Source of the DNA: Dehalococcoidia bacterium
GTDB taxonomy: Bacteria > Chloroflexota > Dehalococcoidia > Lucifugimonadales > UBA2985
NCBI GenBank assembly: GCA_965219025.1
Contig: OZ244716.1
Coordinates: forward strand, 221,175-285,174
Length of the DNA stretch: 64,000 nt
Direction of reading: 5' to 3'
The notes under the pieces were generated by a model. That model ran no database searches and was not told where the DNA came from. It was given only the letters and a program-made list of their open reading frames with translations. Positions within the stretch are counted from its first letter, which is position 1; every line of letters begins with the position of its first letter. The position numbers and the translations under genes were made by a program. Positions 3,643-34,794 of this stretch are shown in pieces.

Positions 3643-4902
3643 CTACTCAATGCCAAGTTCTGCTCTTGCATCCCTCTCGACCCTCCTGTACACCTCATGC
3701 AGGGGCAGACCCTCCCGCAGCGCAATCTCACGGCAGTCCTCGAACTCCGGCGAAAGGCCCGCAACGCGGCCGTCCACGCGCTTCACCTTGACTGCGGCCT
3801 GTCCCAATGACGTGTTCACTACGATCACCTCCCGGTCCGCCTCGTACCGCCTCAGTGAATGCACCCTGACTCCCAGCGTGGAAGTCTCCTCCAGAATCGC
3901 GCCGGCCAGGGCAGACTCCATGCCGGGACGGCAGATCACGCTGAGTGTTACTGCGGGCCGGTTCTTCTTCATCTGTATGGGCGTGAACCATGCGTCCAGC
4001 GCCCCGCGGCCCATGAGCACGTCCTGAACGTGCCCCAGCAGCTCTGGCGTCGAATCGTCGATGTTGGTTTCCAGCAGCGACACCTGTGCCACGGAGCCGC
4101 TCTCCTCGGCCTCACCCACCCACAGCGCCAGCACGTTCGGGATCTCTTCCGAGTCCCGCGAGCCTGCGCCGTAACCCAGGCCCTCGACTCGCATGGGCGC
4201 CGCGTCGAAGTCCGCAAGCGTGGTTATGAGTGCAGCTCCGGTGGGCGTTACGAGCTCGCCGGCCGTCAGATACGGCCCGCGAGGCGGGACGACCTTCGCT
4301 CCCGTCATATGTATAAGCTGCATGGTGGCCGGCGCGGGCGACGGCAGCGGCCCCTTTCGAGACGATATGGTCCCCCATCCACACGGCAGGGGCGACGAAT
4401 ACAGTTTCTCGATGCCCAGAAGCGACAGCCCGGCCACGACGCCCACCACGTCCACTATCGTATCCAGATCGCCCAGTTCGTGGAGCGCATGCCCTTCGCC
4501 GTGCACCCGCGTCTCGGCCTCTTCCAGCCTCTCCAGGACAAGGCGGGCGCGCTCCTTTACAGGCGCGGCCAGCTTGCTTCCTTCCACCATTCCCATGAAG
4601 TCGCGCATGGTGTAGGCGCCGGCGACGCGGGGCTCGTGAGACACGGTGACCAGCGTGCCGCGGATGATGCCTCGATGCACCACGTCCGCTTCGAGAGAGA
4701 ACCCGTTCACCGGGAGTTTCGCGAGCTCGGCGCGCAGGTCTTCGAGCGGCAGTCCCGCGTCGACCAGCGCGCCCAGCAGCATGTCACCGCTGGCCCCGCC
4801 AATGCAGTGCAGGTATCCGGCCCTCAGAGCCAACTCCCCAGCGTCAAGATTGCTTCGTCCGTTCCCGCGCGGCGCTCCCGGACGTCCACGTGCGCTCCTC
4901 AA
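3643..4902 (-). CDS. larC: LarC-family (DUF111) nickel insertion protein
   Basis: YLHCIGGASGDMLLGALVDAGL N-terminal motif and ~400 aa length typical of LarC/DUF111. The ATG at 4902 overlaps the upstream gene by 59 nt. An in-frame TTG at 4833 (giving ALRAGYLHCIGG...) would remove the overlap and fit family N-termini better. Confidence 0.85.
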   Translation of the reverse strand: MRSARGRPGAPRGNGRSNLDAGELALRAGYLHCIGGASGDMLLGALVDAGLPLEDLRAELAKLPVNGFSLEADVVHRGIIRGTLVTVSHEPRVAGAYTMRDFMGMVEGSKLAAPVKERARLVLERLEEAETRVHGEGHALHELGDLDTIVDVVGVVAGLSLLGIEKLYSSPLPCGWGTISSRKGPLPSPAPATMQLIHMTGAKVVPPRGPYLTAGELVTPTGAALITTLADFDAAPMRVEGLGYGAGSRDSEEIPNVLALWVGEAEESGSVAQVSLLETNIDDSTPELLGHVQDVLMGRGALDAWFTPIQMKKNRPAVTLSVICRPGMESALAGAILEETSTLGVRVHSLRRYEADREVIVVNTSLGQAAVKVKRVDGRVAGLSPEFEDCREIALREGLPLHEVYRRVERDARAELGIE

Positions 4903-5491
4903 GCCAGGGGTCGGCGCTGCTGTTGTATCCCCGGACCTCCCAGAAGCCCGGCCTGTCGCGCGCCATGAACTCGATGCCGTTCACCCACTTGGCGCTCTTC
5001 CAGCCGTAGCGGCCCGGCACAACCAGCCGCAGCGGCCAGCCGTGCTCCATCGATAGTGGAAGCTCGTCGTGGGAGTGGGCCAGGAGCACGTCCGATCCCC
5101 GCAGAATATCCAATGCCAGGTTGGTGGTATAGCCGCCGTAGCAGTGTATGGTCGCGAACCGGGCGTCCGGCCACGGGTCGGCCAGCCGCAGCACCTCGCG
5201 GAAGGCCACGCCCTGCCACAAGTTGTCCAGCCGGCTCCACCGTGTCACGCAGTGCATGTCCGCATTGAGAGACGTCTGAGGCATGGCCGTGATGTCTTCC
5301 CAAGCGAGTGTAACGTCGTTCGCGAGACCGAACAGGCGCAACCGCCACGTCGCGATGTCGACGTCGGGAGTTCGGCCGTAGGTGAAGACGGGAAACTTGT
5401 CGGTGACGAACTGCCCCGGAGGAACGGGTCCCTCTCGTTCTCGCTCGAGCTCCGGGCTGTACGCGGGCCGGACCATCAAGCCACCCTCCAT
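4844..5491 (-). CDS. molybdopterin-binding oxidoreductase (sulfite-oxidase / YedY-like catalytic domain)
   Basis: WRLRLFGL...MHCVTRWSRLDNLWQGVAFREVL...HGWPLRLVVPGRYGWKSAKWVNGIEF resembles the Oxidored_molyb domain. Confidence 0.8.
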   Translation of the reverse strand: MEGGLMVRPAYSPELEREREGPVPPGQFVTDKFPVFTYGRTPDVDIATWRLRLFGLANDVTLAWEDITAMPQTSLNADMHCVTRWSRLDNLWQGVAFREVLRLADPWPDARFATIHCYGGYTTNLALDILRGSDVLLAHSHDELPLSMEHGWPLRLVVPGRYGWKSAKWVNGIEFMARDRPGFWEVRGYNSSADPWLEERTWTSGSAARERTKQS

Positions 5492-5592
5492 TCGTTGCTA
5501 CCTCTTCGTGAAGCGCCCCGCGCTTCGCTCCCATGATAACCCATAAGCGTCCCCGCCGCAAAACTCACGCATTGGCATAGGCGTGGGACTTG

Positions 5593-5622
5593 TTGACGCT
5601 CCGCAACCTTCACCGCTACTAT
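5593..5622 (+). promoter_or_regulatory. candidate sigma70-type promoter (TTGACG-18-TACTAT) upstream of the 5701-9131 gene string
   Basis: TTGACG at 5593-5598, 18-nt spacer, TACTAT at 5617-5622. Read directly from sequence; no experimental support. Confidence 0.3.
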
Positions 5623-5700
5623 ACGCCTTGGCCGGTTTCGCGATGCGCGGGACGCCAGCCTGCGCCGTACCGGCACGCAACACAGGAGTGAGTCACTGCA

Positions 5701-5943
5701 ATGGAAGATGACACCATCGGAATGGAGGACATGGTCCTCATATTCGAGGTAACCGACGACCTGGGAATCGACCGCGAGTTGGTCTCCGTGCCGCTCGGCA
5801 AGGAAGACCCCGGAATCGTGCGTCTGCTGGAAACCGGCGAGGTGGAGATTGTGGTGCCGGTGTCCGTTCCACTGGAGGACTGGGCCGAAACGCTGCGGGC
5901 CGAGCTTGTGTCGCTTGGCCTGGACACCGGCGAGGAGGAGTAG
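5701..5943 (+). CDS. small acidic hypothetical protein (80 aa)
   Basis: ORF with ATG start, tightly followed (2-nt gap) by the next ORF. Very Asp/Glu-rich; no recognised family. Confidence 0.5.
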   Translation: MEDDTIGMEDMVLIFEVTDDLGIDRELVSVPLGKEDPGIVRLLETGEVEIVVPVSVPLEDWAETLRAELVSLGLDTGEEE

Positions 5944-5945
5944 CC

Positions 5946-6326
5946 TTGGAGGGACAGGGCTTCATCTCGCTAGAGGTGGAGGACAGTGACAACTGCCCCG
6001 GCCTTCCACTGATGACCTACCAGCTTCTGGGACGCGCTGCTCGCGTGGTGCAGGTGCACATCGCGGGTCCGCACTGGCCTGAGGAGCTCCACTGGGTTAC
6101 GGGGTGGCAGAGCGAACGCGGCGGCTCGCCGTGCCCGGCGTACTACGCGCGCATTTCCGACTCCGGCGCAGGGAGCGCATTCCTGCTCTACGGAGGCGAC
6201 TGGGGCCTTCGATTCAAGCGCGGTAGCGAAGGCGAGGAGTGGGATACGGAAGACCCCGAGCAGTGGGGCGAGCCCTGGCTCGTGCTTGCCGAGGAGTCGG
6301 ACATAGTGGCGGAGGATCCCGGGTAG
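5946..6326 (+). CDS. hypothetical protein (126 aa, TTG start)
   Basis: ORF packed between 5943 and 6330 with 2-3 nt gaps, which suggests co-translation with its neighbours. No recognised family. Confidence 0.45.
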   Translation: MEGQGFISLEVEDSDNCPGLPLMTYQLLGRAARVVQVHIAGPHWPEELHWVTGWQSERGGSPCPAYYARISDSGAGSAFLLYGGDWGLRFKRGSEGEEWDTEDPEQWGEPWLVLAEESDIVAEDPG

Positions 6327-6329
6327 CAG

Positions 6330-9131
6330 TTGAACGCTACGCGGACCAGGGGTCTACTTGCGCTGGCCTCTCTGGCGCTTGCGCTCGCGGGCCAGTACTT
6401 CCTCGAGCACGCGGACTCCCTGGCGATCGGGCTGCTGCTGTTCGCCGCTGGAGGCGCGGCTCTCGTAGCGGCCCGACCCCGCGAGACAGCCCTGTTCCGC
6501 AGCGACCAACTCACGCCGGCCCCACAAGAGCAAAGCAGCGAGGATGACCGACCGCGCAGGTTTGTCCTGGCGCTGCTCGCCGCGTTGCCCCTTCTCGCGC
6601 TGAGCCTGTATCGCTCCCACTCTAACCCCGACGACGGCCTGGCCTGGACGCTCCATGCCGCCAGCGTGGTCGCATTCCTCTACGTGCTGCTGCGACCATC
6701 GCCGGCCAACGTCATACGCAGGCTCAGGGGGGCGATCAAGCGGCCGTCCGCGGCCACTCGTGTCGAGATCGCGGCCGTGGGAGCCGTACTTGCTCTCGCG
6801 CTCCTGCTCCGCGTGGTTGCGCTGGAGGGCCTGCCCTTCGGCCTGTGGTTTGACGAGGCCGTCCACGGCGTGAGCGCCGTCGAAATGCTGGAGGACAGCT
6901 CATACCGCCCCATCTTCGTGCCGGCTGCGAACCTTGCGTCTCCGTTCATTGCCATCCAGGCGGCCTCGGTAGCCGTACTCGGCAGAAGCGCGACCGCGGT
7001 AAGGCTGCCATCGGCGCTGCTCGACGTGGGGTTCATACTGCTGCTGTACCTGCTGCTGCGCCGCCTCATGGGATGGCGCATCGCCCTGCTGGTCGCGTTC
7101 CTGGTGGCCGTATCTAGCTGGGACGTTACGTGGGGCCGGAGCGGTATGCCGGGCACGACCGCGACTCTCCTTGGAGTCGGAACGGTGTTCGCTTTCCTGT
7201 GGGCATTGCGCAGGAACGACATGGCGTCTTTCGCGCTTGCCGGAATGGCGCTGGGCTCGGGCTTCTGGTTCTACCAGGCACTCAGAACCCTGCCCGCCGC
7301 ACTGCTTCTCATCGCCGGCTTCGTCCTTGTGAAGTACCGCCCGCCCGTCCGCGAAGCCCTGTTGCGTGCGGCGTCGTTCACGGCCGGCGCCGTGCTGGTC
7401 GCTGCGCCCCTGCTGCAGTACGCCGTTACCAACGCCGAGTTTTTCTGGAAACGGGCCGTCATTGTCACGTCTCTCAACAGAGGCCCTGCTATCGACCCAA
7501 TCACCTCGATTAGGCCGAATCTGGACAGCTACCTCCTCATGTTCAACTACAGCGGCGACGTGAACGGCCGACACAGCCTGCCATTGGAGCCCATGCTGTC
7601 GTTTGGCGCCGGGGCTGTGGCGGTTCTCGGTTTCCTGTACTGCCTGTCCAGGCCTCACCGTCCGGTGCCGTTCCTGCTGCTGGTGTGGTTTTTCGTAGCG
7701 CTGCTGCCAGGCCTGATTACGCTGCCATTAGAGGCGCCGAACAGCCTGCGAGTCGTGGGAGCGTTGCCCGTAGCCTACGCGTTTGCGGGCGTTGGCATTG
7801 CGGCCGTGATGGTTGCCGCGGCAAGCCTGTTCCCAACGCCAAGGCATGCTGCCGCCGTACTGGGAGCGACGCTGGCCCTGGGTCTCGCCGTCACCGCCTA
7901 CGACAACTTCCACACCTACTTTCATCTCCAGAGGGACAGCATGATCTCCTGGGGTTCCTTCGGTCCCGAGCAGACCGAAATCGCCCACCGGCTGCAGGAC
8001 CTGCCCTCGTCCGACTACGACGTGATACTTTCACCGTACCTGCCCTACTACCCGGTCATCAGTTATCTGGTGGACGACCCACCGCGAATCGAGTCCTTTG
8101 TGCCGGCCAGGCACCCACCGGCGTCCGGAAGCAGCGAGGGCGCCCTGGTCTTCTTCGACACCCGCCAGCAGCAGCACTTCAAGAGTTTCGAGGAGTTCTA
8201 TCCCGGCCGGAGCTTCTCGCTGGTTGACTTTGGGAGGGGGCCGCTGCAACCAATCCTCTACTCGATGGAGGTGAATTCACTCGACGTGTTCCGCCCGCAG
8301 GGGATTACGCTGCGACTGTCCACTCGGGCCTCTGGACAGCAGGCCGTTACCGAGAATACGGTGTCCCGCATCGAACTCCCCTGGGGAGAGTTCGGCACGA
8401 GGCTGCCGCTCTCCGCCGAATGGACCGGCTCGCTCTACGCGCGCGACTTTCAAAGGTACAAGCTCACGCTGGAGGGCTCACAGGACGCAATGCTCACGAT
8501 AGACGGCGCGGAGGTGCTGAGCGGCCCGGGTGAGACCGAGGTCCCGCTCGCGGTGGGCTTCCACAGCGTGAGGGTCCAGGACGTGGTGCGGGACACGAAC
8601 GGCCGGACGCGCTTGACGTGGGGCCGCCCGGGGGATGAGCCAAGTGTGGTGGGCACGCCAAACCTCTACGTCGGCGATCGCTCTCACGGCCTGCTGGGCA
8701 CTTACATGGCTCCCAGCTTCCCGGAAAAGCCCACCGAGGCGTTCCAGCAGATCGACCCCATGCTCTTCTTCTTCTTCCACAAGCGTCCATACATAGGGGA
8801 GTTCAGAATACGCTGGGAGGGTGGCCTGCTCATCGATGAAGCAGGCGAATACGGCTTCAGGCTAGACTCCAGTGGTCCGGCTACGCTGACAATTGGGGGC
8901 TCGGTCGTGGTGGCCAACCCGGGGCTCGCCGAGGAAGTGCCCGGCGCGTTCGAGTCCGGCAGTGGGACCCTGCGACTAGCGTCCGGCACACATCCTATAC
9001 GGGTAACCTTCCGTCACGAGCTCGGCGATCCCCAGATCACCCTGCATTGGTGGGCACAGGGCTATGAGCAGGGAGTCGTTCCAATACCGCCGGACAAACT
9101 GATTCCCGCTCCTCCGCAGCCACCGAAATAG
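6330..9131 (+). CDS. polytopic membrane GT-C glycosyltransferase (ArnT/PMT, GT39/GT83-like) fused to two C-terminal PA14-like domains
   Basis: About 12 hydrophobic helices in the first ~560 aa. First-loop motif LPFGLWFDEAVHG matches the DE(x)xH motif of ArnT/PMT-type enzymes. The C-terminal ~350 aa contain two segments resembling PA14/GLEYA folds: EWTGSLYARDFQRYKLTLEGSQDAMLTIDGAEVL and GLLGTYMA...FRIRWEGGLLIDEAGEYGFRLDSSGPATLTIGGSVV. Confidence 0.8.
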   Translation: MNATRTRGLLALASLALALAGQYFLEHADSLAIGLLLFAAGGAALVAARPRETALFRSDQLTPAPQEQSSEDDRPRRFVLALLAALPLLALSLYRSHSNPDDGLAWTLHAASVVAFLYVLLRPSPANVIRRLRGAIKRPSAATRVEIAAVGAVLALALLLRVVALEGLPFGLWFDEAVHGVSAVEMLEDSSYRPIFVPAANLASPFIAIQAASVAVLGRSATAVRLPSALLDVGFILLLYLLLRRLMGWRIALLVAFLVAVSSWDVTWGRSGMPGTTATLLGVGTVFAFLWALRRNDMASFALAGMALGSGFWFYQALRTLPAALLLIAGFVLVKYRPPVREALLRAASFTAGAVLVAAPLLQYAVTNAEFFWKRAVIVTSLNRGPAIDPITSIRPNLDSYLLMFNYSGDVNGRHSLPLEPMLSFGAGAVAVLGFLYCLSRPHRPVPFLLLVWFFVALLPGLITLPLEAPNSLRVVGALPVAYAFAGVGIAAVMVAAASLFPTPRHAAAVLGATLALGLAVTAYDNFHTYFHLQRDSMISWGSFGPEQTEIAHRLQDLPSSDYDVILSPYLPYYPVISYLVDDPPRIESFVPARHPPASGSSEGALVFFDTRQQQHFKSFEEFYPGRSFSLVDFGRGPLQPILYSMEVNSLDVFRPQGITLRLSTRASGQQAVTENTVSRIELPWGEFGTRLPLSAEWTGSLYARDFQRYKLTLEGSQDAMLTIDGAEVLSGPGETEVPLAVGFHSVRVQDVVRDTNGRTRLTWGRPGDEPSVVGTPNLYVGDRSHGLLGTYMAPSFPEKPTEAFQQIDPMLFFFFHKRPYIGEFRIRWEGGLLIDEAGEYGFRLDSSGPATLTIGGSVVVANPGLAEEVPGAFESGSGTLRLASGTHPIRVTFRHELGDPQITLHWWAQGYEQGVVPIPPDKLIPAPPQPPK

Positions 9132-9211
9132 CCCAAATTGCCTCCAAATAGGGTTACGCTTGCGCTCAACTTGTTATAGAATAGGCGCAATCTAGTTTCG
9201 GAGGTGACTCC

Positions 9212-9352
9212 ATGCAGGGCTATTGCGTGAAGTGCCGTTCTCAGCAAGAGATGAGCAACACCCAGGCCATCACAATGAAGAACGGCCGTCCAGCCACCCA
9301 GGGCACGTGCCCGGTGTGCAGCACCAAGATGTTCCGCATCGGCAAGGCATAG
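9212..9352 (+). CDS. 46-aa zinc-ribbon miniprotein (DUF5679-like)
   Basis: Below the ORF-track size cutoff. GGAGGTG at 9200-9206, ATG at 9212, TAG at 9350. Translation: MQGYCVKCRSQQEMSNTQAITMKNGRPATQGTCPVCSTKMFRIGKA, with CxxC...CxxC. From memory this matches the DUF5679 pattern (C.KC....M.......MKNGR.A..G.C..C.TKMFRIGK). Confidence 0.75.
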   Translation: MQGYCVKCRSQQEMSNTQAITMKNGRPATQGTCPVCSTKMFRIGKA

Positions 9353-9647
9353 CTAATCTACCAAGCAACGGAGGCCGCCTGAGTTTCCCATTGGAGTCGG
9401 GCGGCCCTGCTTGGATTTGTAAGTCACCTCTCCGCTCGGCGGCACAACTGGCCGAGCCCGGCTCTTGGATTCTGTCGTCAGCTCTGTTGGGAGTGCGTGG
9501 AGCCAGTTATTCCAGTTCAGCCACGCCCGCTTCTCTCCCTTCGCATCCCTCACGTACGGGCCCGACCAGCGCCCCTCACCTATCCAGCGCGGTAGGAGTT
9601 CTCGTTCTATTCCAACCTGACCACTCCCCTCACCTGAGCCATATCTC

Positions 9648-25785: not shown

Positions 25786-25800
25786 AAGGCGCGTGATGTC

Positions 25801-25860
25801 CGCTCACCCCCGCATCGGTGTGCGGGGCAGGCTCTGGGCCTGTCGAAGGGCGTGAACGGG
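25801..25860. repeat. REP-like intergenic repeat, family B copy (contains hairpin CCCCGCA-6 nt-TGCGGGG)
   Basis: gctcacccccgcatcggtgtgcggggcaggct... is closely related to the reverse complement of 43445-43483 (gctcacccccgtatcaggtacggggcaggct...). Aligned by eye. Confidence 0.6.
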
Positions 25861-25907
25861 CACAGCTCAAGCCTTGAGCCCCACCTGAGCCGTTCCCCCA
25901 AATCGCC

Positions 25908-26435
25908 TTACTCACCATTGCGGGTCGCCCGGAGAGCCTGTTCGAAGCGTTCCAGCCGCTCCCGCAGATCTGCAACGCTTGCCTCGGTCTGCCGTCCCGC
26001 CGTATCGATGACGATGCCGGCCTGCCAAGGCTCGTATTCACGGTCGCACACCTGCTGCCACGTTGGCAAGACATGTCCCGCGATGTCGGCTATCCGTGTC
26101 TCGACCCTGCGCCGGTGCTCCGCCCGGTCGGTACAGGCGATCTCAACTTCGATGTAGGGCGTGCCCGCACGCACGGCGACGTCCCGCCAGGCGGCTCGGG
26201 TCAGTTCAATCGGGTTCACGGAATCGGCGATCACGGAGTGGCCCAGCCTCAGATTGTCCTCAGCGACAGCGTAGGCGACCACGTACTCCTCTGATCCAGA
26301 AATGGTTACGGACGAGTTGCGCAACGCCTGCTCGATGGAGTCTATGCGCAGATGAACGGCGCCGATGGCCCGTGCCAGTCCCCCACCGATCGTTGTCTTG
26401 CCCACCCCGGGAAGGCCGCCAAGGATATACAACAT
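25908..26435 (-). CDS. P-loop kinase-like ATP-binding protein (AAA_33-type)
   Basis: MLYILGGLPGVGKTTIG is a Walker A motif at the N-terminus. 175 aa, typical of small nucleotide/antibiotic-kinase-like proteins. Substrate unknown. Confidence 0.7.
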   Translation of the reverse strand: MLYILGGLPGVGKTTIGGGLARAIGAVHLRIDSIEQALRNSSVTISGSEEYVVAYAVAEDNLRLGHSVIADSVNPIELTRAAWRDVAVRAGTPYIEVEIACTDRAEHRRRVETRIADIAGHVLPTWQQVCDREYEPWQAGIVIDTAGRQTEASVADLRERLERFEQALRATRNGE

Positions 26436-26523
26436 CGGATGGTGCTACGCAGCTAGCCGCGGTTCCAAGTCCCTGCGTCCGCCGCTCACCAGCCCTTCGG
26501 GCGACGCGCAGCCACCTTCCATT

Positions 26524-26563
26524 GTCATTTCGAGCGAAGCGCAGCGGAGTCGAGAAATCCAGG
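26524..26563 (+). repeat. REP/MITE-like repeat, family A arm (gtcatttcgagcgaagcgcagcggagtcgagaaatccagg)
   Basis: Related copies or arms occur at 27873-27901(-), 44308-44331(-), 45981-46005(-), 57267-57317(+), 57398-57436(-), 61860-61884(+), 62021-62057(+) and 62163-62178(-). Confidence 0.65.
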
Positions 26564-26646
26564 ACCTGACGCCATCGTACACACCTCGCCCCTCACCGGC
26601 AGCGCGCTGGGGAATACCAATTGTCAGCAGCCCGCAGCCGCTCTAA

Positions 26647-27872
26647 GGAAACTCTGAATAATGCCCTTGGATTGTGGCATACTGAGGCCAGGCAAGCCAA
26701 GACCGAGGGGGAGTGACCATGACGGACCAGCCAACCTTTGCCGACTTGGAGTACCAACACAAGAAGCGACAGACCCGTCGGGAGGTGTTTCTGAAGCGAA
26801 TCGACACCCTTATTCCTTGGGAGAGGTTGGAGGAGCGCATCCAGTCGCACTACTTTAAGGCGGAACGGGGTCGCCGGCCTTACCCCCTGTCGGTGATGCT
26901 TCGGGTCCACATCGTCCAGCTCTGCTACAACCCCCGCCTTCGCGAGGGCAGGCTCTGAGTGATCCAGGGATGGAGGATCTGTTGTATGAGGCGGAGTCAG
27001 TAAGGCGATTTGCGGGACTGCGTCTAAGCGAGCCGTTGCCTGACGAGAGCACTATCCTGCACTTCCGGCATCTACTGGAGAAGCACGGGCTGGGGGAAGG
27101 GCTGTTTGAGGAGATCAACAGGCATCTGGAAGAGCACGGGGTACGACTGCGAGAGGGAACCATAGTGGACGCCACCATCATAGAAGCGCCGTCCTCCACC
27201 AAGAACCGGGCCGGGGAGCGGGACCCGGAGATGCGTCAGGTGAAGAAGGGGAACCAATACCACTTCGGGATGAAGCTGCACATCGGGGTGGATTCGGAGA
27301 CTGGCTTGGTGCACAGCTTCGCTACCACATCGGCCAACGTGCATGATGTGACCCAGGCTCACCGGTTATTGCATGGTGGGGAGTCCCAGGTGTGGGGGGA
27401 TGCTGCCTACATCGGGGTGCAGAAGCGGGAAGAGCATCTGCAGTTGGCGGTACAGTGGCAGGTGGCAATGAAGCCGGGACAGAGGCGGAAACTGGAACCT
27501 GGGGACCCGGTGGCAATAGGGGAAAAGGTGAAGGCATCTATCCGAGCCAAGGTGGAACACCCCTTTCTGGATGTGAAGAGACTATCGGGCTACGCCAAGG
27601 TACGCTATCGGGGCTTGGCCAAGAACACAGAACGGCTGGCGCTGCTGCTAGGGCTGTCCAACCTGAACCGGGCCCAGGGCCACTTGGCTGGTTGACCCAG
27701 GGGGTAGTGGGCCCAAAAGCGGGGCTGAAGCCACGAAACGGCCGGAGAGGATAGGGCAAAGGACCGAAATTAACCGCACCATCAACAAACAAGACAACAA
27801 CCGGGAGGGCAAGCCTACTTCTGCACCCGGCAATCAATAAATCAGCCCGGCAGCACTTTGTTCAGACCTTCC
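26647..27872 (+). mobile_element. IS5-family (IS5-group) insertion sequence with imperfect terminal inverted repeats and YTAR target duplication
   Basis: IRL is GGAAACTCTGAATAATGCCC (26647-). The reverse complement of IRR is GGAAGGTCTGAACAAAGTGC (ends at 27872). About 14/20 positions match, and IRR resembles the E. coli IS5 end as I recall it. Flanking tetranucleotides are CTAA (26643-26646) and CTAG (27873-27876), matching the IS5 YTAR target. The internal transposase resembles InsH. Confidence 0.85.
26713..27695 (+). pseudogene. IS5/InsH-like DDE transposase, reading frame interrupted
   Basis: ORF1 (26713-26958) reads TFADLEYQHKKRQTRREVFLKRIDTLIPWERLEE...GRRPYPLSVMLRVHIVQLCYN. ORF2 (26970-27695) reads MEDLLYEAESVRRFAGL...GTIVDATIIEAPSSTKN...RDPEMRQVKKGNQYHFGMKLHIGVD...KASIRAKVEHPFLDVKRLSGYAKVRYRGLAKN. 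Together they are collinear with E. coli InsH from memory. The two halves lie in different frames, separated by about 23 extra nt at 26932-26954. Confidence 0.85.
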
Positions 27873-27901
27873 CTAGATTCCTCGACTACGCTTGGAATGA
27901 C
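27873..27901 (-). repeat. REP/MITE-like repeat, family A arm (inverted relative to 26524-26563)
   Basis: ctagattcctcgactacgcttggaatgac; its reverse complement is gtcattccaagcgtagtcgaggaatctag. It abuts the right end of the IS5 element. Confidence 0.6.
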
Positions 27902-27996
27902 TGTGGTTTCTGGCCCCCTAACACTGCGATAGTCGAAGGGTCTGACACTCACCGATAGTCTGCGCGGACGGCCGCGCGTTCCGTTCGCCGCTGAGC

Positions 27997-28278
27997 CTAG
28001 CGCGAGCCGCCCGCAACGGCCGGCACTATGCTGACTTCGTCGCCGGCGCTTATGGCGGTCTCCAGGCCCTCCAGGAACCGCACGTCCTCGCCGTTGACGT
28101 AGATGTTTACGAAATGGCGCAGGTCCCCCGCTTCATCGCACAGCCGCTCCTTAAGGCCGGGGTACTGGGCCTCCAGCGATTCTATGATCTGCACCAGGTT
28201 ATCCCCGTCCACGGACGCCTTGTCCTGGCCGTTGGTCACCCTGCGCAGCGGAGTGGGTATTCGAACAACTACGCTCAT
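27997..28278 (-). CDS. CysO/MoaD/ThiS-family sulfur carrier protein, C-terminus ...AVAGG-SR
   Basis: [46 protein letters not shown]...[40 protein letters not shown]. From memory this is nearly collinear with M. tuberculosis CysO (..IPT.LR...GQ...GD.L...I.DLEA.Y.G..ERL...RFVNIYVN.EDVRF..GL.TAI..GD.V.I.PAVAGG). I prefer the ATG at 28278 to the track start at 28311. Confidence 0.85.
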
Positions 28279-28332
28279 CTGGCAATCCTCCTGGGCCTCT
28301 ATGCCTTTCACTTCAGCGCAATAGGGCCTGTG

Positions 28333-28575
28333 TTAGCTCTCGATCACGTCCCCGCTGACCGGATCGACTCTGACGCCCATCGACATGACCCAGTCCAGCC
28401 CGCTTTCGATTTCCTCGTCCTCACCCTCAAGCTCCAGAATCACCCAGCCCACGTCCTCTCTAACGTCCGCCCTGCGGATGTTAGTGACCACGCGGAACTT
28501 GTGTCCCAGGTCGAAGATCACGGGTTCAGTGACGAGGTCGGTGGGAAAGGTGAACTTGGCCCTTCGCTTAGCCAT
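28333..28575 (-). CDS. stand-alone NIL-domain protein (80 aa)
   Basis: FPTDLVTEPVIFDLGHKFRVVTNIRRADVREDVGWVILELEGEDEEIESGLDWVMSMGVRVDPV matches the NIL domain pattern (the NI(L/R) signature, as in MetN C-terminal domains). Confidence 0.75.
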   Translation of the reverse strand: MAKRRAKFTFPTDLVTEPVIFDLGHKFRVVTNIRRADVREDVGWVILELEGEDEEIESGLDWVMSMGVRVDPVSGDVIES

Positions 28576-28617
28576 TTGCTGCCCCTTCCATTGGTGATCG
28601 GGAATTCCGAGGCCGGC

Positions 28618-29901
28618 TCACGGCCTCACGCTCAGGGCCTCTTCGAACGAGGCGAAGGTGGGCTTGATGAGCACGGGCCTCACTGTGTCCTCCACCACTT
28701 CCTGCGTCTTGTAGCCGTTGCCCGTGATGAAGGCCACGGTGGTCTCCCACGGCTTGATCTGCCCCGAACGGGCCAGCCTCTTCAGCGAGGCTATCACCAC
28801 GCCGCCGGCCGGCTCCGTGAATATGCCCTCCATCTCCGCAAGCTCCTTGATGCCCTCCGCGACCTCCTCTTCCGGCACGGCGCACCCCGAGCCTCCCGTA
28901 GCCTCCAGGACCCTCAGCGCAAAGTAGCCGTCGGCGGGGTTGCCGATGGCCAGCGACTTGGCGATTGTGTTGGGCTTCACCGGCCTGATTGCGAAGTCGC
29001 CTGCCTCGTAGGCCGCCACGATGGGCGCGCATCCCTCCGCCTGGCAGATGAACATCTTGGTGCTGACATCGCCGATCAGCCCTGACGACGAGAACTCGTT
29101 CAGGCCCTTCCATATCTTGGTGAACAGCGAGCCGGACGCGCCCGGCACGATGCAGTTGTCGGGGGCCCGCCAGCCCAGCTGTTCCGCCACTTCGAATCCC
29201 AGGCTCTTGCTGCCCTCGGCGTAGTAGGGCCGCATGTTGATGTTCACAAAGGCCCAGTTGTAGTTGTCCGAAAGCTCGCTGCACAGCCTGTTCACGTCGT
29301 CGTAGCTGCCGTCCACGGCAACGAGCGTTGCGCCGTACACCGCCGCGCCCAGTATCTTCCCTCGTTCGAGGTCTGCGGGAATGAACACGAAGGCTCGCAT
29401 CCCGGCCCGCGCTGCGTGGGCGGCCACGCTGCCCGCAAGGTTGCCCGTGGAAGCGCACGCAAGCGTGTCGAACCCGAACTCTCGCGCCTTGGTGCTGGCC
29501 ACGGCGACCACCCGGTCCTTGAAGGAGAACGAAGGGTTCACCGCGTCGTTCTTGAGGTAGAGCTCATCCAGGCCGAGCGACCTTGCCAGGTTATCCGCCT
29601 TGATGAGCGGCGTGTAGCCGGCGTTGATGTCGATGGCGTTCTCGGCCTCCGCGGGCAGGAAGTCGTGATAGCGCCACATGGAGTGCGGCCCGCTCTCGAT
29701 TCGCTGGCGGGAGATCACACCGGAGATGGCGTCGTAGTCGTAGGTGACCTCCAGCGGCCCGAAGCAGAAGTCGCAGACGTTGAGAGGCTCGGCAGGATAC
29801 TCCCTGCCGCACTCCTTGCAGAACAGGCCTTTCACGTAGCTCACGGAACGGAGTCCTCCCCGGCTGCCCGCCGACCGACAGTTGCAGATGGCCTGCGCCA
29901 C
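28618..29901 (-). CDS. threonine-synthase-family PLP enzyme with N-terminal zinc ribbon (ThrC-like; true substrate uncertain)
   Basis: CKECGREYPAEPLNVCDFCFGPLEV zinc ribbon; NPSFSFKDR PLP-lysine motif; ACASTGNLAGS; GNPADG. A GTG at 29844 preceded by GGGGAGGA (giving VSYVKGLFCKECG) is a plausible alternative start to the ATG at 29901. Confidence 0.9.
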   Translation of the reverse strand: MAQAICNCRSAGSRGGLRSVSYVKGLFCKECGREYPAEPLNVCDFCFGPLEVTYDYDAISGVISRQRIESGPHSMWRYHDFLPAEAENAIDINAGYTPLIKADNLARSLGLDELYLKNDAVNPSFSFKDRVVAVASTKAREFGFDTLACASTGNLAGSVAAHAARAGMRAFVFIPADLERGKILGAAVYGATLVAVDGSYDDVNRLCSELSDNYNWAFVNINMRPYYAEGSKSLGFEVAEQLGWRAPDNCIVPGASGSLFTKIWKGLNEFSSSGLIGDVSTKMFICQAEGCAPIVAAYEAGDFAIRPVKPNTIAKSLAIGNPADGYFALRVLEATGGSGCAVPEEEVAEGIKELAEMEGIFTEPAGGVVIASLKRLARSGQIKPWETTVAFITGNGYKTQEVVEDTVRPVLIKPTFASFEEALSVRP

Positions 29902-29919
29902 TAGCGCAAGCTGCGCTTG

Positions 29920-29948
29920 ATGTTACAAGAGGCAGATATGGGTGTCAA
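29920..29948 (-). promoter_or_regulatory. candidate sigma70 promoter for the ThrC-like operon (TTGACA-17-TAACAT on minus strand)
   Basis: Reverse complement of 29943-29948 is TTGACA, then a 17-nt spacer, and the reverse complement of 29920-29925 is TAACAT. Confidence 0.45.
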
Positions 29949-29954
29949 GGCAAG

Positions 29955-29990
29955 CCATCCTTGCAACACCATCACGCCTCACCTATAATC
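29955..29990 (+). repeat. 36-bp perfect direct repeat, copy 1 (contains TTGCAA-17-TATAAT promoter)
   Basis: ccatccttgcaacaccatcacgcctcacctataatc is identical to 31488-31523. -35 at 29961-29966 and -10 at 29984-29989. About 19 further nt downstream match roughly 14/19. Confidence 0.95.
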
Positions 29991-30091
29991 GGCTATACCC
30001 AAACGCCGGACTGATGGCCGGTACGATAGGGCTGCGTTGCCAAGCCTGGTTGGCTGCGGTGACGAAGGCGGGACAGAGCAAGGCCGTATAG

Positions 30092-30508
30092 ATGGTGACC
30101 GAGTCTGAAGCGAGTCGTGTGCTGGAGGAGCTCAAGGTCATTGGGGCTAACCTCTCTTGGCAGAATGACGGAGAGACTCTTCGTCTCGAGGCAACCGTCC
30201 TTTGCCTGGCATCCCAGGAAGTGCTCAAGCTTCGCGGGTTTGTTGGGCGGACGAACCGGAGCTTTGCATTGCTTTACCGGAATGCACCAATTCGCAAGTA
30301 TACAGTTCACGCATCGCACACAGATCCAGTAACTCGAATACGCATAACAGGGCCACACAAGCATACTTGGGATGATGAGTGGGAAGACAAGAGGGTATAT
30401 GTCCCAAGTGACATCCGAATTGGCGACCCCAATGAAGAGCTACTGGACTTCTTGAAGGAGTGCAACATCGAGTTATGGGGTGCGTATACGCAGGTGCTCT
30501 TCCCTTAG
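30092..30508 (+). CDS. hypothetical 138-aa protein with GPHKHTW motif
   Basis: ATG ORF and first gene of the cassette. C-terminal half reads HASHTDPVTRIRITGPHKHTWDDEWEDKRVYVPSDIRIGDPNEELLDFLKECNI. I cannot name a family. Confidence 0.6.
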   Translation: MVTESEASRVLEELKVIGANLSWQNDGETLRLEATVLCLASQEVLKLRGFVGRTNRSFALLYRNAPIRKYTVHASHTDPVTRIRITGPHKHTWDDEWEDKRVYVPSDIRIGDPNEELLDFLKECNIELWGAYTQVLFP

Positions 30509-30535
30509 CCGACAGATCATTGAGAAGGTGTCGAC

Positions 30536-31318
30536 GTGGCATTCGGAAGCTGTGCAGATGCAATTGAAAGCTATCTGGCCCATCTGAGGGGAGAATTCAC
30601 TGCCTCCCAATTTCAGGGCGGGTGCCTGCTGTCTACGCCCTTCGTTCGGCCTGATGGCGAGGGCATCGAACTGGAAGTTCAGATTGTGCAATCTGGACGC
30701 ATTCAAATCAACGATCTCGGGAACACGCTAGGCTACCTCTACATTAATGGGATCACGTTGAGCGGACCGCTGATGGCAAACGCCCGCCTGATTTCCAAAG
30801 CTCATGGTGTTTCAATCCTAAGAAACCGGCTGAGCATTGAGGTTGACGCTGATTTTCTTGGAATGGCAATACAAGGGCTTATACAGGCGTCACTTGGAGT
30901 AGTCGATCTGATCCACAAACGCCGGCCGACCTCTAGAGTGAACTTCGACGACGAGGTTGAGTCCGTCATAATCCGAAGTGGCGTTGCCTATGACGTCGGC
31001 TATGCTGTGCCCGGCAAGCGCGAACAGCATACAGTTCGATTCCACGTCAACTCCGGGCGCAATCTCTTGTTTCACCCGCTGTCTCCCGCGAGTGCATCGG
31101 CCGCTCGCAGTTGGGCTGAACGTCTCGCCTACAGGTTCACCGATATCCTAAACGGAGACGACCGCTGGCATCCGTATGCGATTCTTGATGACCGCGGCGC
31201 TAGGGAAGGGGTGTGGAGCTCCCATGCTCTCGTGCCATTGGCGGAATACGCCATCATGTGGTCGCAACGAGACAGCCTCGTTTCCGCCTTGGAGTGGAGC
31301 GGTAGCCCTCCATACTAG
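30536..31318 (+). CDS. DUF1828/DUF1829-like hypothetical protein (260 aa)
   Basis: GTG start 27 nt after the previous stop. The N-terminal pattern CLLSTPFVRPDGEGIELEVQIVQSGRIQINDLGNTLGYL resembles DUF1828 as I recall it (..TPF.d...d.i.iyv......i.lsDdG.T...L). The length fits a DUF1828+DUF1829 two-domain protein. Confidence 0.6.
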   Translation: MAFGSCADAIESYLAHLRGEFTASQFQGGCLLSTPFVRPDGEGIELEVQIVQSGRIQINDLGNTLGYLYINGITLSGPLMANARLISKAHGVSILRNRLSIEVDADFLGMAIQGLIQASLGVVDLIHKRRPTSRVNFDDEVESVIIRSGVAYDVGYAVPGKREQHTVRFHVNSGRNLLFHPLSPASASAARSWAERLAYRFTDILNGDDRWHPYAILDDRGAREGVWSSHALVPLAEYAIMWSQRDSLVSALEWSGSPPY

Positions 31319-31487
31319 AAGCCGCCACGTCGGAGACCGTCTGAAACTCACGTCCCTCGTCTTGCGCTCTCGTCGAAGTTTGCAAGGGCTAATATTTTGC
31401 GCCCGGACAAGGCCATCAAGGCGCGTGGGAGCTTCGCAGGTCGCTCCGGAAACTTCAGCGGATCCCCGCTGGAATTCCGCCTCCACC

Positions 31488-31523
31488 CCATCCTTGCAAC
31501 ACCATCACGCCTCACCTATAATC
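31488..31523 (+). repeat. 36-bp perfect direct repeat, copy 2 (aspS promoter TTGCAA-17-TATAAT)
   Basis: Identical to 29955-29990. -35 at 31494-31499 and -10 at 31517-31522. The aspS start is 35 nt downstream. Confidence 0.95.
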
Positions 31524-31557
31524 CGCTGGACTCACACGCCGGTTCGAGAGGTATGCC

Positions 31558-33357
31558 TTGCTGAAATCCGTTAGCTGCGGCGCGCTTCGCATCGAGGACG
31601 AGGGCCGTGAGGTCACGCTCGCGGGCTGGGTCCACCGCCGGCGCGACCACGGCGGTCTCGTGTTCATCGACCTGCGGGACTGGCGAGGCATCGTGCAGGT
31701 GGTGTTCAACCCGCAGGTAGCGCCGGACGCCCATGAAGCTGCCCAGAGCCTCCGCAGCGAGTGGGTGCTTCGCGTGCGCGGCGTCGTCGGCCAGAGGCCG
31801 CCCGGCACAGCAAACCCCAACATCCCAACAGGAGACGTGGAGGTCGTCGCAGCGACCCTGGAGGTCCTCAACCCGTCAATTACGCCTCCGTTCAGCCTCG
31901 AAGATGAGGCCGCAGAGGCCGACGAACTGGTCAGGCTCAGGTATCGCTACCTCGACCTGCGGCGGGCAGCCATCCGCGACAACCTGTTCCTGCGTCACCG
32001 GGTGGTCAAGTACATACGCGACTTCCTCTCAGAGCTGGAGTTCATCGAGGTGGAGACGCCAATCCTCACCAAGAGTACGCCGGAGGGCGCGCGGGACTAC
32101 CTGGTGCCCAGCCGGATTCATCCTGGCCAGTTCTACGCCCTGCCCCAGTCGCCGCAGCAGATGAAGCAGCTGCTGGTCATGGGCGGCGTGGAGCGTTACT
32201 TCCAGATCGCTCGCTGCTTCCGCGACGAGGACCTGCGGGCCGACCGCCAGCCGGAGTTCACGCAGCTGGACCTGGAGATGGGCTTCGTCGATGAGAGCGA
32301 CGTGCTAGAGCTTATGGAGCAGCTGTTCACGGGCCTTGCGGAGACGATTGTGCCCCACAAGCGCCTGCTCAAGCCCTTCCCAAGGCTCGCCTACGCCGAC
32401 GCGATGGACCGCTATGGCTCCGACAAGCCCGATCTGCGATTTGGACTGGAGCTTTCCGTCCTGTCGGACATAGCCGCAGAGTCGAATTTCCAGGTGTTCA
32501 AGAATGCGGTCGAGTCGGGCGGCGTCGCCAAAGGACTGGCCGCTCCCGGATGCGCATCGCTCCCTCGCCGCCAGGTGGACGCGCTGACCGACATGGCGCG
32601 CGAGCGCGGCGCGTCCGGTCTCGTGACCATCGCCCTCGACGGCGACCCTGACCACTCCCTGGACGACCTGACGGAGGACGAGTTTCGCTCGCCCGCGGCC
32701 CGCTACCTGACCACGGACGAGGTCAAGCGACTGGCTGCCCGCATGAACGCCTCCCGCGGCGACCTGCTGCTGATTGTGGCGGGCCCGCGCGAGAGCGTCG
32801 ACAATGCGCTCGGCGGCCTGCGGGTCGAGATGGGACGGCGGCTGGAGCTTGCGGACCCGGACCTGCTTGCATTCGGTTTCATCGTCGACTTCCCGCTGCT
32901 GGAGTGGAGGCCTGACGAGAACAGGTGGGACTCTCCCCACAACCCGTTCTCATCGCCCAAGGACGACCACCTGCCGCGGATGGATTCCGATCCCGGCTCG
33001 GTGCTGGCCAAGCAGTACGACCTTGTGTGCAACGGCATGGAGCTTGCCGGCGGCAGCGTGCGCAACCATCGCCGTGAGATCCAGGAGCGCGTGTTCGAGC
33101 TGTTGGGCCACAGCCGCGAGGCGATGCAGGAGCAGTTCGGTCAGATACTGGACGCGCTGGAGTACGGCGCTCCGCCCCACGGCGGCTTCGCCAGCGGAAT
33201 CGACCGCGTGGTCATGCTCGTTGGCGGCGTCGACAGCATCCGCGAGGTGATGGCCTTCCCCAAGACGCAGAGCGCCGTGGACCCGCTGTTCGGCGCACCG
33301 TCCCCCGTTTCGGAGCAGCAGCTGCGTGACCTCCACATACGCGTGGTTGGCGAGTAG
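31558..33357 (+). CDS. aspS: aspartate--tRNA ligase
   Basis: TTG start. VTLAGWVHRRRDHGGLVFIDLRD (OB anticodon-binding domain), FYALPQSPQQMKQLL, FQIARCFRDEDLRADRQPEFTQLD (motif 2), GGFASGIDRVVM (motif 3). Confidence 0.97.
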   Translation: MLKSVSCGALRIEDEGREVTLAGWVHRRRDHGGLVFIDLRDWRGIVQVVFNPQVAPDAHEAAQSLRSEWVLRVRGVVGQRPPGTANPNIPTGDVEVVAATLEVLNPSITPPFSLEDEAAEADELVRLRYRYLDLRRAAIRDNLFLRHRVVKYIRDFLSELEFIEVETPILTKSTPEGARDYLVPSRIHPGQFYALPQSPQQMKQLLVMGGVERYFQIARCFRDEDLRADRQPEFTQLDLEMGFVDESDVLELMEQLFTGLAETIVPHKRLLKPFPRLAYADAMDRYGSDKPDLRFGLELSVLSDIAAESNFQVFKNAVESGGVAKGLAAPGCASLPRRQVDALTDMARERGASGLVTIALDGDPDHSLDDLTEDEFRSPAARYLTTDEVKRLAARMNASRGDLLLIVAGPRESVDNALGGLRVEMGRRLELADPDLLAFGFIVDFPLLEWRPDENRWDSPHNPFSSPKDDHLPRMDSDPGSVLAKQYDLVCNGMELAGGSVRNHRREIQERVFELLGHSREAMQEQFGQILDALEYGAPPHGGFASGIDRVVMLVGGVDSIREVMAFPKTQSAVDPLFGAPSPVSEQQLRDLHIRVVGE

Positions 33358-33438
33358 CGGCGGCGTGCAGTTCACCGCTTCACAATCCGGCAACTGTGCG
33401 CTTATAATTGAAGGCACAGTCCCTATCAGGAGTCGTCC

Positions 33439-34794
33439 GTGAAAGTATCCCTGCTTGAAGAGGCCCAGAGCCAGGTTGTGCTTAGCATTGAGGTTGAGCC
33501 GCCCGAGCTGGATGAGCATCTCGACAGGGTCTACCGCCGGGCGGTGCAGCGCGTGAACATTCCCGGCTTTCGGAGAGGCAAGGCGCCGCGTTCCGTCGTG
33601 GAGCGAGAGCTTGGCCGGGACGCAATGGTGGAAGACGCGCTGGACACACTCCTGCCGCAGATCACGTCAATGGCAATCCAGGAACGGGAGTTGGACGTGA
33701 TCTCACTGCCCAAGGTGCGAGTCACCGAGTACGACCCTCTCATGGTCGAGGTCACGGTTCCCGTCAGGCCCGCCATCGACCTTGGCGACTACTACAGCTA
33801 CCGCGTCGAGCAGGAGAGCGTGGAAGTCGCGCCGGAGGCCGTGGACGAGCTGATTGACTCCATGCGAGAGGACGCCGGAACGTGGGAGCCCGTGGAGCGC
33901 TCCGTGGCCCTGGACGACCTCGTCACTCTCGAGGTACGCGGCCTGGTGGAGGAAGAGGTGGTCATCGAAGAAGAGCGAGTGGACTATCGCGTTTCGGCGG
34001 ACTCCACGGTACCTATGCCCGGCTTTGCCGACCGGCTCGTCGGCCTCAACCGGGACGAAGAGCAGCAGTTCTCGCTGCCCTTCCCTGACGACCACCCGCA
34101 GGAAAGCTGGGCGGGCAAGGAGTGCGCCTTCACGCTCACTGTGCACGAGGTAAAGGAGCGCAAGCTGCCGGACCTGGACGACGAATTCGCCAAGAGCCTC
34201 AATGCAGAAGTGGACTCCGTGCCGGCGTTGCGCGACAAGTTCCAGGAAGACCTGCTCAGGCGCAACCGGCTCATCGCTGACCAGACCTACCAGGAGAATG
34301 CTGTCCAGGCGCTGGTGGAAGGTTCAAAGATAGAGGTCCCGCCTCTACTTATCGACCACGAGATCGAGCACATAATCTCCGAGCAGCAGGAGGCCCTCCA
34401 GCGCCAGCAGGTGAGGATGGAGGACTACCTGAGCACCATCGGCAAGAGCGTGGAGCAGATACAGGAGGAGCTTCGGCCGTCGGCGGCCGATCGCATCACG
34501 CGCACGCTTATCCTCGGCGCACTCCGCGAGAAGGAGGGCATCGAGGTGACGCCCGAGGAGATAGACGAGGAGATTGAGTCTATGCTCGGGGAGTCGGAGG
34601 CCGCGACCGATTCCATGAGGCAGATGCTGGAGGGATCGCGAAACTCCATCGGCACCATGCTTCTCAATCGCAAGACCCTGGAGCGGCTCACAGCCATCAC
34701 CAAGGGCGAGGCCACCGAGCCCCTGCCGGCCGCGGCGAGCCCGACCGGCGAAACATCCGAAGAAGAAGAAAGCGAACCCGAAGAAGGAGCCTGA
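33439..34794 (+). CDS. tig: trigger factor
   Basis: [16 protein letters not shown] ribosome-binding signature; PPIase-like middle domain; acidic C-terminus. Conserved tig-clpP-clpX order. Confidence 0.93.

Follow-up and report, generated by a model that had tools for sequence, protein, structure and literature searches.

A gene pair between thrC and aspS

The 64,000-nucleotide (nt) stretch of Dehalococcoidia bacterium DNA analysed here (hereafter the window; assembly GCA_965219025.1, contig OZ244716.1, positions 221,175–285,174) carries two genes, A and B, which form an insert of low guanine-plus-cytosine (GC) content between the housekeeping genes thrC and aspS (GC 0.50–0.53 within the pair versus 0.62–0.67 in the flanks). 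Gene A (30092–30508, forward strand) has an ATG start and encodes a protein of 138 amino acids (aa) assigned to DUF6978 and to PDC-M24A of PADLOC, and gene B (30536–31318, forward strand) has a GTG start and encodes a two-domain protein of 260 aa assigned to PDC-M24B. This layout agrees with an initial annotation of the same DNA, which described two co-directional genes 27 nt apart. The spacer between them (30509–30535, forward strand) holds a Shine-Dalgarno-like GAGAAGG (30522–30528), read as ending 7 nt ahead of the GTG of gene B, and this GTG occupies the same start position in 24 aligned homologues. The two genes often overlap or are tightly spaced, with a gap of ~20–45 nt or a 4-nt gene overlap in relatives. 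Homologues at 40–99% identity were recovered for both proteins (A, n = 110; B, n = 52), and the ratio of non-synonymous to synonymous substitution rates (dN/dS) of gene A between the window and the closest genome, L031, is 0.076; on these grounds both A and B are real genes.

Searches of PADLOC-DB v2 identify the pair, by profile matching, as a Dehalococcoidia member of a mobile two-gene module held there as the phage defence candidate (PDC) PDC-M24. Both window proteins match the two sets of hidden Markov models for this candidate, and the two-gene architecture and the A-then-B order are the same. Protein A matches PDC-M24A (PDLC04533) with an E-value of 3e-10, aa 1–132 aligning with profile positions 1–139 of 151, and protein B matches PDC-M24B through PDLC04539 (E-value 1.3e-15, profile positions 4–252 of 255) and PDLC04540 (E-value 6.8e-15). 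The initial annotation had proposed a two-gene defence or addiction module and had held that no catalogued system matches it. The proposal of such a module gains from the fixed gene order and from the plasmid, prophage and restriction–modification (RM) settings described below, whereas the second statement has to be withdrawn: the pair is already in a public catalogue and is therefore not a new kind of system.

PDC-M24 is one of 145 phage defence candidates, which were nominated because they are embedded in bacteriophage exclusion (BREX), defence island system associated with restriction–modification (DISARM) or type I RM systems; its cassette is listed as FAM_00129>>FAM_00065, and its two-gene row carries the figure 153 (Payne et al. 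2024, bioRxiv 10.1101/2024.01.29.577857). Literature searches returned no paper text mentioning PDC-M24 and no experiment on this family. The window pair departs from the catalogued module in two respects. It comes from a divergent clade that this analysis recovered only from Dehalococcoidia/Chloroflexota, the pair itself being 13–27% identical to the prophage, plasmid and archaeal PDC-M24 members compared, and it lies among housekeeping genes rather than within an RM, BREX or DISARM locus.

The two genes are strongly linked. In the scan seeded with B, which took one genome per species and gave 39 loci, all of them in Dehalococcoidia or Chloroflexota assemblies and nearly all in metagenome-assembled genomes, 36 loci have A immediately ahead of B; the others comprise one locus cut by a contig end, one in which A consists of its last 17 codons (L024) and one without A (L033). 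The metagenome scan seeded with A gave 34 loci, three of which were cut by contig ends, and in 29 of the 31 scorable loci B is the next gene after A, the exceptions being L066 (truncated A, no B) and L064 (apparently intact A, broken B). The initial annotation would have taken separate occurrence of the two genes, or single homologues in conserved metabolic operons, as evidence against a module; the scans gave the A-then-B arrangement in 36/39 and 29/31 loci, and the neighbours of the pair vary from locus to locus with no conserved operon partner. The pair is patchily distributed across phyla and across both prokaryotic domains.

Domain content of proteins A and B

Protein A aligns with the full length of the Pfam DUF6978 model (PF22398) at 26.2 bits and an E-value of 1.1e-5, a score below the cut-off of 29.6. 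The same model matches 39 of 39 members of the window A subfamily (best E-value 1.4e-12), and canonical DUF6978 members score ~1e-40 on it. The A family is small, with 351 clusters (50% identity) in a set of 1.84 billion representatives, and in the best 150 of these 351 clusters the proteins are nearly all stand-alone and ~140–160 aa long. Sequence searches with A gave no match in NCBIfam and only families of unknown function in PHROGs, and no relatives of the A profile were found among IMG/VR viral contigs. The predicted structure is confident (predicted local distance difference test (pLDDT) 87; predicted template modelling score (pTM) 0.83) and describes a small alpha+beta protein with two helices (aa 4–12 and 113–123) on an antiparallel sheet whose ~seven main strands are joined by an additional short one. 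Foldseek comparison of this model with PDB and BFVD returned nothing below an E-value of 0.018 and no coherent fold family, while sequence and profile searches of PDB chains gave chance-level matches only, for A and B alike.

Invariant residues of the window A subfamily include R68, K69, T71, H73, H76, P88-H89-K90-H91, W93, Y103, D119, E123 and C124. Across the wide A family H89 is invariant, and K15, W23, R68, K90, H91, Y103, F120 and E123 show conservation of 90% or more. A His-Lys-His set combined with an Arg is typical of metal-independent RNases, and the conserved Arg and His-Lys-His motif of A suggests that the protein may be an RNase. The initial annotation had read the His-rich C-terminal half (HASHTDP...GPHKHTWDDEWEDKRVYVPSDI...FLKECNI), which is indeed present in the 138-aa open reading frame (ORF), as a possible metal or nuclease-type site, and such a site is plausible.

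Other branches of DUF6978 provide a link to TumE (DUF6516, Pfam PF20126), an experimentally validated translation-blocking toxin that is neutralised by diverse adjacent partners, lies usually downstream of its partner and has a fold of two helices on a seven-stranded antiparallel sheet without PDB match; one TumA partner is a remote RelB homologue (Durairaj et al. 2023, PMC10584680). The TumE model matches 5 of 48 diverse DUF6978 proteins (best E-value 8.8e-6), and chance would very rarely place five matches on a single family among 24,736 models. The A protein of Haloarcula scores 24.6 bits against Pfam TumE, for which the cut-off is 23.4 (E-value 2.6e-5). A profile search with diverse A proteins returned DUF6978 proteins only and no TumE. 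The predicted fold of A may resemble that of TumE, which is described in similar terms: each is a small alpha+beta protein in which an antiparallel sheet carries two helices, and neither has a PDB match. The two systems share, beyond the DUF6978 members that match the TumE model, a bicistronic organisation and variable partners. They differ in the identity of the partner, which for A is a DUF1828/DUF1829 protein rather than one of the TumA partners of PMC10584680.

Protein B is predicted to fold into two domains (pLDDT 82). The N-terminal domain (aa 34–121; 30635–30898, forward strand) is DUF1828 (Pfam PF08861), with 28.8 bits against a cut-off of 22, which bears out the earlier recognition of this domain, and the model matches 25 of 25 B homologues. 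In Foldseek searches its predicted structure resembles type III secretion chaperones and YbjN-like proteins (3cxj, 4h5b (DR_1245) and SycE), all as weak matches with E-values of ~1e-2. The C-terminal domain (~aa 137–252; 30944–31291, forward strand) is a divergent DUF1829 domain with a restriction-endonuclease-like (PD-(D/E)xK-like) predicted fold. The DUF1828+DUF1829 architecture that had been suggested for B stands at the level of the family but not as a direct match, the Pfam DUF1829 model (PF08862) detecting neither B nor any of the 25 relatives examined in its subfamily. On this model the canonical B proteins encoded by plasmids pRSB223 and pAOF1 give 1.7e-33 and 6.4e-30, respectively, and hhalign aligned the window B subfamily with a seven-protein alignment that includes these two at 99.9% probability (E-value 6e-35, 248 columns); B can thus be regarded as a divergent DUF1828+DUF1829 protein.

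The DUF1829 part of B has the predicted secondary-structure order alpha-beta-beta-beta-alpha-beta. Foldseek matches it to the Can2 and Card1 nuclease domains, AF1548, XisH, Mus81 and EndoMS, with high probability and weak E-values (at least 9e-3); the best target-normalised TM score is 0.62, to XisH, and the nuclease matches otherwise reach 0.6 or less. The order of its predicted fold fits that of PD-(D/E)xK proteins such as XisH (2inb/2okf), AF1548 (1y88), Can2 and Card1, from which it differs in having no PDB sequence match and no recognisable conserved D...(D/E)xK motif. In a set of 14 diverse B proteins this catalytic motif is not conserved, F137 and D219 being the only positions of the domain to reach 90% conservation; in the widespread FDF strand, the window B subfamily has Arg or Lys in place of the acidic residue. 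Within the Dehalococcoidia B subfamily the invariant charged residues of the domain are E142, H165, H170, E195, R196, D218, D219 and R220. An active restriction nuclease in this domain was considered and rejected, since the domain lacks a conserved catalytic motif and is dispensable.

This dispensability is evident from natural variants, in which the DUF1829 domain has been lost independently at least three times. The first case is L031 (OY821663.2), whose thrC and aspS products share 93% and 89% amino-acid identity with those of the window: its B ends at 146 aa, where a deletion fuses it to the aspS leader, while A is intact and the flanking genes are kept. The second is a clade of six loci (L037, L038, L039 and L042–L044) with DUF1828-only B proteins of 140–148 aa that end in NFAQGR or a close variant (CFAQGR, SFAQGR, NFGQGR). 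A glyoxalase-type gene and a molybdopterin oxidoreductase gene flank the pair in L038 and L042–L044; L016 has apparently the same flanks as the short-B clade, but a full-length B. In the third case, L048, the partner of A is a DUF1828-only protein of 132 aa. Both genes of the short-B clade are under purifying selection, with dN/dS values of 0.11 for A and 0.21 for the short B between L039 and L042, most other pairs being saturated at synonymous sites. Three losses of DUF1829 together with purifying selection on the short pair imply that this domain cannot be the only effector. The DUF1828 domain is kept in every short-B variant and is the constant partner of A, and A together with DUF1828 is the conserved core.

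A precedent for the toxin–antitoxin (TA)-like module proposed below is the validated DS-6, or HipAD, a two-gene, TA-like anti-phage system from DefensePredictor, in which the DUF1829-containing protein is predicted to bind both a HipA-like toxin and DNA (PMC13092281). It shares with the A/B pair the two-gene organisation and, if B is the non-toxin partner as proposed, the DUF1829 domain of that partner. By description, it differs in that its toxin is a HipA-like kinase and in that the other domain of the partner is DUF3037 rather than DUF1828.

Genomic context and history of the insertion site

Outside the Chloroflexota, the A-then-B arrangement occurs on mobile elements. On the Haloarcula taiwanensis plasmid pNYT2 (L041, region 4045–9524) the pair lies ~0.5 kb downstream of a gene for a 506-aa Schlafen/AlbA_2 protein, which itself directly follows a gene for a 1299-aa type IIG RM protein, and annotated CopG/toxin and PemK/AbrB pairs are found within 10 kb, so that the surroundings look like a small defence island. 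The same arrangement is present on the IncP plasmid pRSB223 (JX469828) and on the Acetobacter plasmid pAOF1 (AP018516). In three prophage-like contigs the pair lies between cI/Peptidase_M78 lysogeny genes and an integrase or recombinase gene. DNA methylase genes are found downstream of the pair in L047 and L050. Pfam assignments of 68 immediate neighbours in the Dehalococcoidia loci include N6_Mtase (4), N6_N4_Mtase (2), Eco57I (3), Mrr_cat (2) and Methylase_S (2), counts that may overlap, and we judge that such methylase and RM neighbours probably exceed chance.

In the window, the pair is flanked by thrC (threonine synthase; 28618–29901, reverse strand) and by aspS (aspartyl-tRNA synthetase; 31558–33357, forward strand, TTG start), the latter being followed by tig, clpP and clpX. 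The longest thrC ORF has 427 aa and a GTG start, 19 codons beyond the 408-aa gene called in L031, L091 and L092; the true start is probably an internal one near 29844. A 55-nt direct repeat brackets the pair, its copies (29955–30009 and 31488–31542, both forward strand) being 91% identical. The duplicated promoter of the initial annotation is present at the level of sequence, each copy containing TTGCAA-N17-TATAAT. The sigma-70-like promoter of the upstream copy (29961–29989) scores 10/12 matches in the promoter scan and stands 102 nt ahead of the start of gene A, and its counterpart in the downstream copy (31494–31522) precedes aspS. By its sequence, the upstream repeat copy was duplicated from the aspS promoter region. 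Promoter-like sites number 4 in the scanned region, where 0.9 would be expected. No terminator-like site was detected in the region scanned, including the interval between gene B and the downstream repeat copy, and no Rfam family or tRNA lies within or beside the insert. The same promoter precedes gene A in the relatives L031, L091 and L092. An integron-type cassette was considered and rejected, because the flanking repeats copy the aspS promoter and leader and are not recombination sites.

The closest relative preserves a longer version of this duplication. In L031 (9457–9556) the promoter copy ahead of A runs on across the aspS leader and four codons into aspS itself and forms a 10-codon mini-ORF ending at the ATG of A, from which it follows that the ancestral insertion duplicated ~80–95 nt of the aspS 5′ region. 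The upstream copy of the window (29955–30091) diverges earlier than that of L031, after CGCCGG. The duplication appears to have left one promoter for the A/B pair and one for aspS. A search of 30+ other loci for flanking direct repeats found none, which makes the promoter duplication specific to the lineage of the window, a local accident rather than a general signature of mobility.

Comparison of the window (27996–34445) with L091 and L092 gave DNA identities of 95–98% for A and 94–97% for B, against 85–89% for thrC, aspS, tig and thiS. The pattern is reversed with respect to L031, where protein identity is 82% for A and 93% for thrC. These opposite patterns indicate that the history of the pair is decoupled from that of its flanks, and the decoupling would fit recent lateral exchange of an accessory module, between related lineages, at a small variable site. 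In L031 the thrC–aspS gap is also longer by ~3 kb ahead of the pair (6409–9557), with ORFs that by eye encode CAP/SCP-domain-like and NYN/LabA-like proteins, so that this gap seems to be a small variable hotspot. Elsewhere in the window, a 2.2-kb segment (25791–27995) is missing from L091 and L092, where its flanks lie ~100 nt apart. It contains a 175-aa ORF (25908–26435, reverse strand) with a P-loop-like GxxGxGKT motif and, by sequence reading, an IS5-like transposase divided between two ORFs (26713–26958 and 26970–27695), which may for this reason be frameshifted.

Proposed function and alternatives

We consider it an even call, with a probability of roughly 0.5, that the pair is a TA-like abortive-infection/defence or addiction module, in which A is a TumE-like effector, DUF1828 its binding partner and DUF1829 an accessory DNA-binding or sensing domain. 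Under this proposal A would be a small toxin, distantly related to TumE, and probably a metal-independent RNase acting through Arg68 and the His89-Lys90-His91 cluster. B would bind A and keep it inactive by means of its chaperone-like DUF1828 domain, while the DUF1829 domain would serve in DNA binding, autoregulation or sensing of an invader and not as a killing nuclease. Transcription of both genes would be constitutive, from the duplicated aspS promoter; A would be released on infection or when B is lost, and would then stop translation. We infer here the toxicity and target of A, the binding between A and B, the trigger and the anti-phage effect. A more specific version, in which PDC-M24 is a working anti-phage TA system of a new type that combines an RNase toxin of the TumE superfamily, a restraint with the DUF1828 chaperone fold and a catalytically dead DUF1829 domain that senses invader DNA or controls the promoter, is tentative and on present evidence somewhat unlikely.

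Several observations weigh against the proposed TA-like module. The source paper itself calls the PDC candidates untested (10.1101/2024.01.29.577857), and most Dehalococcoidia loci lie among metabolic genes rather than in defence islands. Window A has no TumE match at an E-value of up to 1, nor does any of the 39 members of its subfamily, so that the TumE link is one of transitivity, by way of other DUF6978 branches. The gene order is the opposite of the usual one for TumE, with A placed upstream of its partner, and every Foldseek match of B is weak (E-value at least 9e-3). In L064 (3980–4724 of Ga0080064_1000045, a 386-kb contig) the apparently intact A stands beside a B that has lost ~residues 26–185 through an internal deletion with frameshift, a state that is unlikely if A is strongly toxic, barring a silent A or a second B elsewhere. 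In type II TA modules generally, orphan antitoxins may occur, whereas a toxin gene is not expected without its antitoxin; B lacks A in L024 and L033, and L064 is the exception with an intact A.

One alternative is a sensor–effector defence system that is not of TA type, in which B cuts invader DNA with its C-terminal domain and A is the regulator or sensor that switches B. The resemblance of this domain to the PD-(D/E)xK nucleases Can2, Card1, AF1548, XisH, Mus81 and EndoMS is in keeping with such a role, as are its many invariant charged residues in the Dehalococcoidia and the frequent position of the pair beside DNA methylase or RM genes. However, the domain has been lost three times while the pair of A and a DUF1828-only protein stayed intact under purifying selection, the candidate catalytic positions vary across the family, with Arg or Lys in place of the FDF acidic residue in the window subfamily, and the Foldseek E-values are weak (at least 9e-3). 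We regard a nuclease effector in B as improbable.

It is likewise unlikely that the pair is purely an addiction or stabilisation module without an anti-phage role, which would hitch-hike on plasmids and prophages and whose loss would kill or slow the cell. The plasmid and prophage locations speak for such a module, as does long retention at one site, apparent from the flanking genes shared by L016, L037–L039 and L042. B occurs without A in L024 and L033, A is accompanied by a DUF1828 partner in 29/31 A-seeded loci, and most Dehalococcoidia loci are outside defence islands. Against this stand the discovery of the family inside BREX, DISARM or type I RM systems, its prophage position in the lysogeny module, which is typical of superinfection-exclusion genes, and the retention of A in L064 though B is broken. 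As many TA pairs do both jobs, this alternative overlaps with the explanation that we favour.

A function outside conflict, such as controlling the excision of mobile elements (the role proposed for XisH/XisI) or housekeeping nucleic-acid processing, could account for XisH being one of the better fold matches to the C-terminal domain of B (target-normalised TM score 0.62) and for the position of the window pair among the core genes thrC, aspS, tig, clpP and clpX, but is highly improbable given neighbours that differ in almost every locus with no conserved operon partner, a patchy distribution across phyla and both prokaryotic domains, the low GC content in the window and the truncation of the pair in its closest relative L031 without loss of flanking genes.

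For the TA-like module that we favour, the natural variants predict that A and the first ~140 residues of B suffice and that A is the toxic part. The Dehalococcoidia are poorly studied and hard to culture. The family spans bacteria, archaea, plasmids and prophages, and a functional result would transfer widely. Should the version with a TA system of a new type be true, it would give roles at once to DUF6978, DUF1828 and DUF1829, and it would tie TumE toxins to phage defence in bacteria and archaea.

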